A stretch of 64,000 nucleotides of DNA from contig CAVREM010000042.1 in NCBI GenBank assembly GCA_963720005.1, positions 307,918-371,917 of the forward strand. Reading direction: 5' to 3'. Below are positions 26,453 through 28,229 of this stretch, one piece after another. The number at the start of each line of letters is the position of its first letter. Position 1 is the stretch's first letter. The notes beneath the pieces were generated by a model. The model did no database searches and was not told the DNA's origin. It saw only the letters and a program-made list of their open reading frames with translations. The position numbers and the translations under genes are program-made. The stretch is from an uncultured Acidobacteriota bacterium. GTDB taxonomy: Bacteria > Acidobacteriota > Vicinamibacteria > Vicinamibacterales > CAVVIG01.

Positions 26453-26559
26453 GAATTTAAGATTTCAGATTTAAGATTTCAGATTGGCGCCGATTTGATT
26501 GGCAGCCCGTCTCGCGGCAGCCACCAATCTTAAATCTGAAATCTTAAATCTGAAATTTC
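26453..26559. repeat. AT-rich AGATTTM-word hairpin element, copy A
   Basis: The arm gaatttaagatttcagatttaagatttcagattgg (26453-26487) is followed by the GC core cgccgatttgattggcagcccgtctcgcggcagcca, then the arm ccaatcttaaatctgaaatcttaaatctgaaatttc (26524-26559). Confidence 0.9.
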
Positions 26560-26582
26560 AGCGTTCTCGATTAGGAGGCGTG

Positions 26583-26825
26583 ATGGCGGTAGCCGACAAG
26601 GTCAAGAGCATCATCGTGGAGCAGCTCGGCGTGGACGAAGAGGAAGTGACGCCCGACGCGTCGTTCGTCGACGACCTCGGCGCCGACTCGCTCGACACGG
26701 TGGAGCTCGTCATGGCGTTCGAAGAGGAGTTCGGGATTGAGATTCCCGACGAGGACGCCGAGAAGATCACCCGCGTGAAGGAAGCGGTCGAGTACATCGA
26801 GTCGCACGCCAAGAGCAAGAAGTGA
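26583..26825 (+). CDS. acpP: Acyl carrier protein
   Basis: AGGAGG lies 5 nt upstream of the ATG at 26583. The sequence ...[32 protein letters not shown] is present. Confidence 0.95.
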
Positions 26826-26862
26826 CCAGGAACCGCCGGGGATGGGGCCCCGGATACCAAGG

Positions 26863-28118
26863 ATGATGGCGAACCGGCGAGTCGTCGTGACGGGGATCGG
26901 GTTGGTGTCCTCGCTCGGCATCGGCACCGAGGCGAACTGGACGGCGTTGACCGCCGGCCGGAGCGGCGTCGACACGATCACGAAGTTCGATGCCACGCAA
27001 TTCGCCACGCGGATCGCCGGCGAGGTCCGCGGCTTCGATCCGCTCGCCGTTCGTCGACAAGAAGGACGTCAAGAAGATGGACGTCTTCATCCAGTACGCG
27101 ATTGCCGCCGCGCAATTCGCGATGGACGACTGCCTGCTTCAAGGTGACGCCCGAGAACAGCACCCGCGTCGGCGTGTTCATCGCTTCCGGCATCGGCGGG
27201 TTCACGACCATCGAGCGCGAGCACCGCGCCCTGCTCGAGGGCGGGCCGCGCAAGATCTCCCCGTTCTTCATCCCGTCGGCGATCATCAACCTCGCGGCCG
27301 GCCAGGTGTCGATCCGCTTCGGCGCGCGCGGGCCCAACTCGGCGACCTGCACCGCCTGCTCGGCGTCGGCGCACGCCATCGGCGACGCCTACGAGATCAT
27401 CCTGCGCGGCGCGGCCGACGTCATGATCGCGGGCGGCTCCGAGGCGGCGATCACGCCGATGGGCATCGGCGGGTTCGGCGCGCTGCGCGCGCTCTCGACC
27501 CGCAACGACGAACCGGGCCGGGCCAGCCGCCCCTTCGACAAGGACCGCGACGGCTTCATCGTCGGCGAGGGCGCCGGGGTGGTCATCCTCGAGGAGTACG
27601 AATCGGCCCGCCGCCGCGGCGCGCGGATCTACGCCGAGCTCGTCGGCTACGGCATGTCGGCGGACGCGTATCACATCACCGCGCCGTCCGAGGACGGCGA
27701 CGGCGCGTTCCGCGTGATGCGCGCGGCGATCGACAGCGCGGGCATCGGCCCCGAGCAGGTCGACTACATCAACGCCCACGGCACCTCGACGCCGCAGGGC
27801 GACAAGCTCGAAACCGTGGCGATCAAGCGCTGCTTCGGCGATCACGCGCGGATGCTGGCCGTCTCGTCGACCAAGTCGATGACCGGCCACCTGCTCGGCG
27901 CCGCCGGCGGCCTCGAAGCCGGCATCACCGCGCTCGCCGTGCACCACCAGATGGTGCCGCCGACCATCAACCTCGACGCCGCGGATCCCGAGTGCGATCT
28001 CGACTACGTCCCGAACGTCAAGCGCGCGGTCCCCATCACGTACGCGCTCTCAAACTCGTTCGGGTTCGGAGGGACGAACGCCGCGCTGTTGTTCAAGCGA
28101 CACGAGAGTGGATCGTGA
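26863..28118 (+). CDS. fabF: 3-oxoacyl-ACP synthase II (frame broken at about 27045 and about 27135)
   Basis: RRVVVTGIGLVSSLG is in frame 1 and FVDKKDVKKMDVFIQYAIAAAQFAMDD in frame 2. GVFIASGIGG...ATCTACSASAHAIG...INAHGTSTPQGD...SFGFGGTNAALLF is in frame 3. Confidence 0.9.
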
Positions 28119-28229
28119 AGATTTAAGATTTCAGATTTCAGATTTAAGATTGGAACGGTCTCGCATGATGGGCTGCCAATCGATAACCTGCGCCAATCTG
28201 AAATCTGAAATCATGAAATCTTAAATTTC
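28119..28229. repeat. AT-rich AGATTTM-word hairpin element, copy B (core inverted relative to copy A)
   Basis: Arms are agatttaagatttcagatttcagatttaagattgg and ccaatctgaaatctgaaatcatgaaatcttaaatttc. The reverse complement of the core contains GATTGGCAGCCC, identical to copy A. Confidence 0.9.

Follow-up and report, generated by a model that had tools for sequence, protein, structure and literature searches.

Three puzzles of bacterial genomes, each of them decades old, have been treated apart: the intervening sequences (IVSs) of 23S rRNA together with their S23p ORF, the over-representation of heptamers (STRR, GGGAATC, TAACTGA), and the 'four helix bundle protein' genes. Stand-alone genes of the last kind number in the thousands and are often seen splitting operons.

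The IVS in helix 45 of the 23S rRNA of Coxiella burnetii has a terminal stem of 28 bp and contains the S23p ORF (PMC4990558). Its 5′ region carries two to three tandem heptamers (GACAGAT) just upstream of the ORF, the number of which depends on the strain; RNase III cleaves where the first of them begins (PMC4990558). The IVSs of 23S rRNA are tolerated in an essential transcript because they are excised by the RNase III of the host (PMC4990558).

For heptamer repeats, 70–75 convergent pairs with the potential of forming stem-loops were described in Xanthomonas (PMC4692102), and their patchy phylogenetic distribution has been taken as a hint of horizontal transfer (PMC4679880). As Mrazek (2007) is summarised in the latter work, no other long simple repeats are as common in prokaryotes as those of heptanucleotides, which were proposed to arise by polymerase slippage. 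Finally, Avd, which serves diversity-generating retroelements (DGRs) as an accessory protein, is a member of the PF05635-like four-helix-bundle family (PMC10053308).

The window analyzed here, i.e., the whole stretch of 64,000 nucleotides, contains two AT-rich hairpins around the genes acpP and fabF, hereafter copy A and copy B. With a probability of about 0.7, these belong to a dispersed family of IVS-like palindromes, lack an ORF, were placed independently of each other and are carried as passengers in operons.

Structure of the two hairpins around acpP-fabF

Copy A (26450-26560, no strand assigned) is a full ORF-less element in the spacer between fabG and acpP, with its left arm at 26450-26487, the core at 26488-26523 and the right arm at 26524-26560. 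Its upstream neighbour fabG (25707-26447, plus strand) encodes a 3-oxoacyl-ACP reductase and ends with the stop codon TAG at 26445-26447, and acpP (26583-26825, plus strand), which encodes the acyl carrier protein, starts with an ATG at 26583 behind an AGGAGG Shine-Dalgarno sequence. Copy B (28119-28230, no strand assigned; left arm 28119-28153, core 28154-28192, right arm 28193-28230) is likewise a full ORF-less element and lies in the spacer between fabF (ketoacyl-ACP synthase II, 26863-28118, plus strand, stop codon TGA at 28116-28118) and its downstream neighbour etfB (electron transfer flavoprotein beta, 28240-29016, plus strand, ATG at 28240). It begins 0–1 nt past the fabF stop and ends 9 nt ahead of the etfB start. 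The assignments of FabD, FabG, ACP, EtfB and the C-terminal part of FabF are borne out by Pfam. In this assembly, the fabF reading frame has one or more breaks near 27050-27165.

Both copies are palindromes of about 110 nt with arms built of AGATTTC/AGATTTA units, and the left arm of copy A reads TGGAATTTA AGATTTC AGATTTA AGATTTC AGATTGG. TRF reports a period of 7 with 4.4–4.9 copies on each arm. When anchored at GATTGG/CCAATC, the arms of copy A match in register at 32 of 37 positions, with the mismatches falling exactly on each seventh (A/C) position, and when slipped by 7 nt they form 24 contiguous perfect pairs. This agrees with the sequence-only reading of the locus, which had described one mismatch every 7 nt and perfect pairing after a slip of one heptamer. 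The arms of copy B are weaker (28/38 in register); the right one has a 1-nt insertion, and the left one, which directly adjoins the fabF stop codon, lacks the terminal GAATTT unit. The claim that the cores share a 12-mer in opposite orientation also holds, as GATTGGCAGCCC is present in both cores and inverted in copy B relative to copy A.

Both strands were folded, as had been suggested. The predicted RNA structures reach -48.0 (plus strand) and -46.2 kcal/mol (minus strand) for copy A and -50.5 (plus strand) and -51.5 kcal/mol (minus strand) for copy B. Shuffled controls lie at about -25 kcal/mol, which corresponds to z = -6.7 to -7.9. The observation of AT-rich hairpins on both sides of acpP-fabF is confirmed: each is palindromic, with z around -7 on either strand.

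A consensus scan of positions 25600-28700 for intrinsic terminators was empty at both elements, the stems of which are AT-rich and not followed by a T-run; this speaks against the interpretation of copy B as a 3′ terminator. The promoter consensus scan of the same region found nothing at copies A and B. No Rfam family matched the window at the gathering threshold, and at E≤1 the region of copies A and B gave just sub-threshold matches to plant miRNA precursors, with at most 32.6 bits against thresholds of 72–139. The tRNA/tmRNA scan and Rfam found no rRNA or tRNA gene in the window.

Conservation in relatives

The cell needs much more ACP than FabD or FabG, and the hairpins might have been selected as a dedicated pair for an abundant acpP(-fabF) transcript, copy A stabilising its 5′ end or acting as a processing site and copy B terminating it or stabilising its 3′ end. 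The demand for ACP fits this explanation, and so does the conservation of copy A, which a relative of 91% overall DNA identity (L116) also has at fabG|acpP. There, the arms have changed once each, in the outermost unit alone, against four changes in the 36-nt core, and the number of heptamers is identical to that in the window. Kept arms around a freely changing core accord with an element family, but the conservation of copy A, together with the other hairpins at these two junctions in relatives, would fit selection for a local function as well. In relatives of 68–86% identity, some strong hairpin was counted at about 20 of 75 fabG|acpP and about 17 of 33 fabF|etfB junctions, by a lenient count by eye without a matched background, and almost never at the fabD|fabG junction. 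However, fabD and fabG usually overlap, so that there is no room for an insertion between them. With a strict detector of periodic hairpins, 329 kb of relatives contained 4 at fabG|acpP, 4 at fabF|etfB and 13 elsewhere, i.e., no clear enrichment at the two junctions over others.

The comparison with relatives, which had been named as a check, thus gave a divided answer: copy A is kept in L116, but about 40 of the 75 related fabG|acpP junctions consist of just an 8–10-nt spacer carrying the Shine-Dalgarno sequence. In many relatives fabF and etfB overlap. Furthermore, copies A and B are oppositely oriented and have neither a U-tract nor a terminator or promoter consensus, and the same element also occurs in a divergent spacer, behind rsmE and at unrelated loci in other genomes (see below). 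A pair dedicated to acpP-fabF is accordingly an unlikely explanation.

The order fabD-fabG-acpP-fabF-etfB is kept in relatives without the elements, which bears on a further explanation, namely a composite transposon or cassette in which the two inverted copies jointly mobilise the two genes that they flank. The inverted arrangement around a two-gene unit is what such a cassette would look like. However, each copy alone is a complete palindrome with both arms, there is no transposase, and acpP and fabF, both core genes, have kept their ancestral position within a collinear gene order. The composite origin, which had been put forward as an alternative, is hardly credible on these grounds and was rejected.

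A dispersed family with a gene-carrying form

Copies A and B are not the sole pair in the window. A third full copy (62831-62930, no strand assigned), which shares the terminal repeat but not the core, is located in a divergent spacer between a minus-strand gene of the cyclase family (61749-62741) and a plus-strand gene starting at 62938. A half copy (59207-59244, plus strand), which consists of the left arm alone followed by the core-like GGCGAGGATCTGGCGGGCAGCC, lies 1 nt past the stop codon of rsmE (TAG, 59203-59205) and upstream of a gene of the metallo-beta-lactamase family starting at 59330. In addition, an arm fragment, CGTTTTCAGATTTAAGATT (710-728, plus strand), was found just upstream of a GTG start at 741. 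The 64 kb therefore hold 3 full copies of 100–111 nt and 2 partial ones, and the arm pattern has 17 matches at these five sites, against 0.00 expected from 100 shuffles. The bracketing of acpP-fabF is real as far as both copies exist, but owing to the further copies it comes down to two members of a dispersed family. By our own arithmetic, 4 elements in about 50 spacers would give some pair at most two genes apart with a chance of about 0.4. The search for further copies, which had been proposed as a check, turned out against a role specific to this locus, with copies in the divergent spacer, after rsmE and at unrelated loci elsewhere. On the own terms of the sequence-only reading, which counted scattered copies and relatives of the same gene order lacking the elements against it, the isolation of acpP-fabF is weakened.

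The copies have in common a 38-nt terminal inverted repeat, CTGRAATTT(MAGATTT)3MAGATTGG, and the core between the arms is variable. The same terminal repeat is present in other Acidobacteriota assemblies. In an alignment (A1) of four window copies, L116, L086, L040 and L006 with the gene-carrying L078 and L196 (see below), 28 arm columns are invariant and the number of units is constant. A scan with one genome per species gave at least 115 arm loci; for the exact 20-mer scan of 596 Gb, about 70 matches are expected by chance according to our own estimate. An inverted partner of the same unit was found within 170 nt for 56 of 119 seeds and in 0 of 119 control windows 1.2 kb off, which leaves about half of the seeds without such a partner. 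Among the AGATT-type arrays with callable neighbours, 15 of 17 are located between co-directional genes, and most of the paired (hairpin) copies lie within about 30 nt of both neighbours. Only 3 arm matches were found in viral contigs, so phages are no obvious vector.

We infer the mobility of the elements from their dispersal only, because neither a transposase nor another known mobility enzyme is associated with them. A target-site duplication was found neither at copy A nor at the elements at 62831 and 59207, and is thus not consistent across copies. The one candidate is the 7-nt string TGAAGAT, which occurs on either side of copy B (28116-28122 and 28241-28247) but coincides in part with the arm unit and with the beginning of etfB.

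The hairpins might also have grown locally without any mobility, by slippage of the 7-nt unit in one arm and a template switch (quasi-palindrome correction) which copies the expansion across. The window and its relatives hold many seemingly single-copy hairpins, each with a unit of its own and a period of 7, 8 or 9 nt, and the natural etfB start ATGAAGATT resembles the heptamer unit. Polymerase slippage was proposed as the source of the common heptanucleotide repeats (Mrazek 2007 in PMC4679880), and Coxiella strains differ in heptamer number (PMC4990558). In the AGATTTM family, however, the number of units is constant. The terminal CTGRAATTT and part of the core (GGCG..GATyTG.TTGGCAGCC) are common to copies at unrelated sites and between genomes, which points to copying from a common source, and copies of the gene-carrying form, again with these arms, are found at several separate sites. 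Local growth is thus an improbable origin of this family.

A third possibility is that the elements act at the level of DNA, with the arrays serving as protein-binding sites or cruciforms in replication, recombination or nucleoid organisation, and that the RNA hairpin is incidental. The arm sequence itself, beyond its pairing, is kept between copies and between genomes that differ widely in GC content; the arms have about 20% GC and are alike in genomes of 50% and 67% GC. The seventh (A/C) position agrees between the arms in about 47% (unit nearest the core; 15 elements only), and in the same 15 elements compensatory change at this position gives no sign of selection for pairing. A position that is not kept complementary would fit recognition of a 6-nt core per unit. 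Against this, the elements are placed overwhelmingly in transcribed spacers of co-directional genes, and the one characterised relative works at the RNA level (PMC4990558). A purely DNA-level function is very improbable.

In other Acidobacteriota assemblies, the same terminal repeat flanks a form of about 630 nt with a PF05635/TIGR02436 four-helix-bundle gene. The gene L078:1347-1766 belongs to PF05635 (E 4.8e-12) and TIGR02436 (E 1.1e-19). Its product thereby falls into the 'S23p' family known from 23S rRNA IVSs, to which Avd is homologous. L078, L086 and L006 all come from the assembly MFD04850.bin.2.64, and hence the gene-carrying and the ORF-less form coexist in one genome. Close homologues of L078 at different genomic sites (L196, L197, L199, L200, L100) all have flanking inverted AGATT[TG]N arrays. 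Alignment A1 does not bear out a derivation of the ORF-less copies from the gene-carrying elements by internal deletion: the arms are conserved, but past 'GGCG' the cores have no convincing homology to the longer form.

The association of PF05635 genes with tandem-repeat arms is general. In a sample of 22 such genes from Acidobacteriota, Chloroflexota, Bacteroidota, Cyanobacteriota and Spirochaetota, 20 are flanked by inverted arrays of 7–8-nt tandem repeats, covering at least five phyla. The score for inverted repeats between the upstream and downstream regions exceeds 13, the 99th percentile of 2000 random 400-nt segments (median 8), for 20/22 genes, and a lag-7 or lag-8 periodicity was detected for all 22. 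In a profile search of the 1.2 Mb of fetched loci, only 4 PF05635 genes were found, each of them inside such a hairpin. The literature on heptamer repeats, STRR, small dispersed repeats, IVSs and four-helix-bundle proteins yielded no link between PF05635 and tandem-repeat arms, and a search by arm sequence returned irrelevant eukaryotic matches only. The link between the PF05635 gene and heptamer arms appears to be undescribed in the searchable literature.

Expected fate of the transcripts and comparison with known systems

The location of most elements in short spacers of co-directional genes suggests that they are transcribed within operon mRNAs. Copies A and B, as strong hairpins in a co-directional run of genes, are almost certainly transcribed as well. 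Within the mRNA the arms would form a stem of about 35 bp, which, judging from its length and by analogy with the 23S rRNA IVSs, is probably cut by RNase III. Such cleavage would break the fab-etf transcript at both junctions, fabG|acpP and fabF|etfB, and the newly formed ends would carry half-stems. Of the roles suggested for the hairpins, the processing site is, by the same analogy, the most plausible consequence at the RNA level, whereas a purpose-built isolation of acpP-fabF does not agree with the dispersed copies. An effect on acpP-fabF expression, if there is any, would be a by-product of where the copies landed and not their purpose. For acpP-fabF itself, the outcome is mostly deflationary.

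For annotation, such hairpins should not be taken for gene-specific regulators; they flag likely mRNA processing points inside operons. The evidence joins the puzzle of the IVSs with that of the four-helix-bundle genes, since 20 of the 22 genes sit inside a hairpin with tandem-repeat arms and since genomes with the gene-carrying form also contain dispersed ORF-less hairpins that share its ends, and it points toward the heptamer-repeat puzzle. Tentatively, the acidobacterial copies and the 23S rRNA IVSs could belong to one class of operon-invading elements across phyla, all with arms of 7–8-nt tandem repeats, a wider reading that we regard as possible but doubtful. This class may extend to many cyanobacterial STRR arrays and to the inverted GGGAATC pairs of Xanthomonas. 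The autonomous form would encode an Avd-like four-helix-bundle protein, which would recognise the repeat units and be required for copying, maintaining or mobilising the element. ORF-less hairpins such as copies A and B, by far the larger group, would be non-autonomous passengers, tolerated because RNase III cuts them from the host transcript. This model predicts that RNase III excises the elements as cassettes and that the four-helix-bundle protein binds the repeat units.

Several known systems resemble the elements in part. With MITEs they have in common a size of about 110 nt, long terminal inverted repeats, an intergenic location, multiple copies, and a longer gene-carrying relative with the same ends in the same genome. 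However, this relative encodes only the four-helix-bundle protein and no transposase, a consistent target-site duplication is lacking, tandem heptamers make up the ends and the cores vary. REP elements and REPINs are likewise dispersed extragenic palindromes, often directly after stop codons inside operons. In E. coli, REP elements can shape segmental mRNA stability. The elements described here differ from them by the lack of a GTAG-type head and by 35-nt tandem-repeat arms instead of an imperfect palindrome of 20–40 nt. In a look that was not exhaustive, no gene for a RAYT transposase, the partner of REPINs, was noticed.

The heptamer repeats of cyanobacteria (STRR), Xanthomonas (GGGAATC), Nostoc (GGGGAYT) and Beggiatoaceae (TAACTGA) are also 7-nt tandem repeats in intergenic regions near the end of the upstream ORF. 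As in STRRs, the arms consist of head-to-tail 7-nt units in non-coding DNA, but their copy number does not vary between the window and L116 or across alignment A1. The units differ from AGATTTM, and the papers on heptamer repeats treat them as simple sequence repeats or G-quadruplex motifs, without a connection to PF05635 or IVSs. Avd and the protein encoded by the long form are members of one PF05635-like four-helix-bundle family (PMC10053308), whereas neither a reverse transcriptase nor template/variable repeats adjoin the elements examined.

The nearest characterised relatives are the 23S rRNA IVSs of Coxiella, Leptospira, Brucella and Salmonella. IVSs are inserted into 23S rRNA genes, at helix 25 or 45, whereas the copies of the window lie between protein-coding genes, and unlike IVSs the elements are multi-copy in a genome. 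Both have a long terminal stem and a variable interior. Some IVSs carry a PF05635 ORF and others are short and ORF-less, and the same holds for the family described here, of which the window copies are all ORF-less. Finally, the Coxiella IVS has tandem heptamers beside its RNase III cut site, with the unit GACAGAT there and AGATTTM here.

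Hairpins flanking acpP and fabF

Copy A (26450-26560), an AT-rich hairpin with heptamer arms, is located between the stop codon of fabG (26445-26447) and the start of acpP (26583), which is preceded by an AGGAGG Shine-Dalgarno (ribosome-binding) sequence. Its counterpart, copy B (28119-28230), lies between the fabF stop codon (28116-28118) and the etfB start (28240). These positions were read from the sequence, and the identities of FabD, FabG, ACP, FabF (C-terminal part) and EtfB were verified with Pfam. Anchored at GATTGG/CCAATC, the arms of copy A match at 32 of 37 positions, the mismatches being every seventh (A/C) position, and slipping by 7 nt gives 24 perfect pairs. 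The arms of copy B are more irregular (28 of 38 positions matching plus an insertion of 1 nt), and the outermost arm unit is missing on the fabF side. The cores have GATTGGCAGCCC in common in opposite orientation. The arm pattern was matched 17 times in the window vs. 0.00 expected, and the fold energies of copies A and B on both strands are -46 to -51.5 kcal/mol vs. about -25 kcal/mol for shuffled sequences (z -6.7 to -7.9). The oppositely oriented hairpins around acpP-fabF described in the sequence-only reading are thereby borne out. Its 3′ terminator at copy B found no backing, since a consensus scan of both copies identified neither promoter nor terminator signals. No Rfam family matched the elements.

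The heptamer TGAAGAT occurs on both flanks of copy B (28116-28122 and 28241-28247), and in insertion-free relatives fabF overlaps etfB as (A/G)TGAAGAT. The string could be either a target duplication of 7 nt or a microhomology of the etfB start with the arm unit. The spacer between acpP and fabF (26826-26862) has a small GC hairpin (CCGGGG..CCCCGG) without a periodic element. Single-base shifts break the reading frames of several conserved genes, namely of fabF (26863-28118), where the alignment to a relative needs two frames, of rsmE (58461-59205), of the gene from 62938 onward and possibly of etfB (28240-29016). They resemble the indel errors of long-read metagenome assemblies more than true pseudogenes.

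Further repeats in the window and at the fab locus of relatives

A third full copy (62831-62930) separates two genes that are transcribed divergently. At 59207-59244, starting 1 nt past the rsmE stop codon, just a left arm is present, and at 710-728 an arm fragment. Copies A and B are therefore members of a family and not a pair. By our own arithmetic, the chance that some of four elements in about 50 spacers lie at most two genes apart is about 0.4, and the opposite orientation is a coin toss. A composite transposon made of both copies and the genes between them, the alternative origin offered before, is scarcely credible, as the gene order is ancestral and each copy is a complete palindrome by itself.

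Four further intergenic hairpins (1456-1600, 2617-2815, 35416-35492, and 54853-54949) have arms of tandem 7- or 8-nt units, each of which occurs only once in the window (GTGAGTTG/GAGAGTT, TCGGTTC, TGAGTTSG, and CTCGGTG/GTCCCGA), and some of them begin a few nucleotides past a stop codon or finish just before a start codon. Direct heptamer arrays at 20279-20319, 48830-48875, and 58353-58446 (AGTCGGT x6, GACTACC x6, and GCACTCR/CCAGCAC), in or bordering intergenic spacers, have no inverted partner according to the hairpin detector. Three adjoining large tandem arrays (45181-45831) fill the spacer upstream of the gene at 45832 (43 nt in 5.7 copies with 98% identity, 48 nt in 3.3 and 33 nt in 5 copies), with units including GGCGGACAAG/CTTGTCCGCC-type palindromes. 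A GC-rich palindrome of the type GTAGTGTCCGGCTTCAGCCGGAC / GGTCCGCC...GGCGGAC, present at 36532-36642 and 45427-45480 and at the fab junctions of the fetched loci L123, L141, and L182, probably represents a separate REP-like family.

For comparison, 80 metagenomic loci encoding FabG of 68-94% identity were fetched. In one of these, L116 (94% FabG identity, 91% DNA identity over 2 kb), copy A is found at the same place. Each arm differs by a single substitution, located in its outermost unit, and is otherwise identical, while the 36-nt core has four changes; the sequence stops short of the fabF/etfB junction. No other fetched relative carries an AGATTTM element (M being A or C) at fabG/acpP or fabF/etfB. 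About 40 of 75 fabG/acpP junctions are spacers of 8-10 nt containing a Shine-Dalgarno sequence, and at several loci fabF and etfB share an ATGA or GTGA overlap. Other strong hairpins are located at about 20 of the 75 scored fabG/acpP and about 17 of 33 fabF/etfB junctions, many with arms in which units of 7, 8 or 9 nt and very different sequence are tandemly repeated (e.g., GGGTAATY, GGTCATNN, GGTTGGT, CGCAGAAC, GTGGCCA, and CAATGCN). A strict detector, demanding a TRF array with an inverted partner, identified four at fabG/acpP, four at fabF/etfB and 13 elsewhere in 329 kb, so that neither junction is clearly enriched. The fabD and fabG genes mostly overlap, which leaves no space for an insertion.

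The retention of copy A in L116 and the recurrence of hairpins at both junctions would suit a dedicated regulator isolating acpP-fabF, but the family is dispersed, promoter and terminator signals are missing and the junctions show no enrichment, which makes it unlikely.

At fabF/etfB, L131 has a 22-nt spacer, gattggatagccagatactgag, whose two ends are found in L136 with a 100-nt hairpin of GGGTAATT 8-mers between them, possibly an empty/filled pair that could mark the insertion boundaries.

A dispersed family with a gene-carrying form

Scanning one genome per species (596 Gb) for the exact 20-mer GATTTMAGATTTMAGATTGG yielded at least 115 loci, with about 70 matches estimated by chance. Among the listed matches, several single genomes have multiple loci, and the hosts include Acidobacteriota of 50% and 67% GC, Planctomycetota, Verrucomicrobiota, Bacteroidota, Nitrospinota, and Chloroflexota. 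Of the 119 listed seeds, 56 have a same-unit partner in inverted orientation within 170 nt vs. none of 119 control windows; for many other listed seeds the partner arm is built of a different heptamer. Aligning the four window copies with those of other Acidobacteriota assemblies gave a single terminal repeat, CTGRAATTT-M-AGATTT-M-AGATTT-M-AGATTT-M-AGATTGG, with 28 invariant columns and variable cores. Its fixed unit number, and the termini and core motif that AGATTTM copies have in common, contradict an origin of this family by in-situ slippage with quasi-palindrome correction, which is plausible for the unique-unit hairpins and unlikely for copies A and B.

Co-directional genes flank 15 of the 17 arrays with callable neighbors, and most paired copies lie within about 30 nt of both neighbor genes. 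The arm sequence is kept across copies and across genomes of differing GC, while complementarity is not maintained at the seventh position, which hints at sequence-specific recognition, speculatively by a four-helix-bundle protein. On an alphaproteobacterial contig (L016, 5550-5720), the arrays are nested: GGGGCTR heptamers stand outside AGATTTA heptamers on the left, and TAAATTT and CCCTAAT/CCCTAGC arrays form the mirror image on the right, so hairpins can have concentric layers of differing units.

In L078, from Acidobacteriota MFD04850.bin.2.64, an assembly which also harbors the ORF-less L086 and L006, left and right arms of this same repeat are separated by 560 nt and enclose a 140-aa ORF. 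It matches PF05635 "23S rRNA intervening sequence protein" (E 4.8e-12) as well as TIGR02436 "four helix bundle protein". A profile search of 1.2 Mb of fetched sequence identified only four PF05635-type genes, all within tandem-repeat-armed hairpins, built of AGATT-type heptamers (L078, L100), GTAATTNN 8-mers (L058) or GTGGAAAA 8-mers (L174). The last (1-620), in a FabG relative, lies between fabD and fabG; the same junction of the related L164 has only a TTTTCCAC array and a short remnant, and the two loci look like a gene-carrying and a decayed state of one insertion.

The L078 protein has 833 close homologues (E<=1e-5), all PF05635, and those of L196, L197, L199, and L200-L209, at differing genomic sites, each lie between inverted AGATT[TG]N arrays. 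Fourteen more PF05635 genes, from annotated plasmids of Chloroflexota, Bacteroidota, Spirochaetota, and nine cyanobacteria, have the same architecture with varied units (AGATTTT, AGATTGC, AGATTGG; GTCGGAG; CAATTCG; CGTAAAT plus CCCCAAT; GAAGGAT). The local alignment score of the upstream flank against the reverse complement of the downstream flank exceeded 13 in 20 of 22 PF05635 genes (median 24.25 for the first 16), compared to 2000 random 400-nt segments of fetched loci, where the median was 8 and the 99th percentile 13, and all flanks of the 22 genes show lag-7 or lag-8 periodicity. These data establish a dispersed palindromic family whose terminal repeat is common to a gene-carrying form. 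In the literature searched, no paper ties PF05635 genes to tandem-repeat arms; this general association and the AGATTTM hairpin family of Acidobacteriota both appear to be undescribed there.

Many of these PF05635 genes interrupt a single operon, with co-directional neighbors on both sides (DrmD/MmeI, helicase/methylase, DUF1156/HEPN, fabH/peptidase). Heptamer-armed stand-alone four-helix-bundle genes recur within defence operons on plasmids of Chlorohelix, Gloeocapsa, Planktothrix, Pseudanabaena, and Anabaena (L210, L212, L215, L221, L213, L226), for example between helicase and N6-methylase, between DUF1156 and Swt1-HEPN (two phyla), between DrmD and MmeI of a DISARM system, and adjoining cas1/cas2.

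Proposed processing and relation to known systems

Copies A and B are best read, with a probability of roughly 0.7, as ORF-less members of a family of heptamer-armed hairpins resembling 23S rRNA intervening sequences (IVSs). Rather than having a role at the DNA level, which we consider very improbable, they would be transcribed as part of the operon mRNA and fold into a stem about 35 bp long, which RNase III would probably cut by analogy with IVSs. Such cutting would explain why insertions as close as 1 nt past a stop codon and 9 nt ahead of a start codon, or located within rRNA, are tolerated. Cleavage would release separate fabD-fabG, acpP-fabF, and etfBA messages with half-stems left at the new ends. 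Of the sequence-only reading, the hairpins remain, and a processing or stabilizing effect on the fab messages may exist as a by-product of cleavage; a purpose-built acpP-fabF pair found no support.

Heptamers are the commonest long simple repeats according to Mrazek (2007), as cited by MacGregor (2015; PMC4679880), who reported TAACTGA arrays in Beggiatoaceae, cyanobacteria, and Bacteroidetes. The 186 GGGAATC arrays of Xanthomonas are 89-93% intergenic and follow the preceding ORF at a mean distance of 28 nt; 70-75 of them are in convergent pairs capable of forming stem-loops (Rehm et al., 2015; PMC4692102). Avd, which serves diversity-generating retroelements as accessory protein, is homologous to PF05635 proteins (PMC10053308). 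The 23S rRNA IVS of Coxiella is a selfish element of 428 nt whose ends pair in a 28-bp stem and which contains an S23p ORF. Directly upstream of this ORF, in the 5′ region of the element, two or three tandem heptamers GACAGAT, differing in number among strains, are located; the IVS is removed by RNase III, which cuts where the first repeat begins, and an old proposal ascribes present or past mobility to IVSs (Warrier et al., 2016; PMC4990558).
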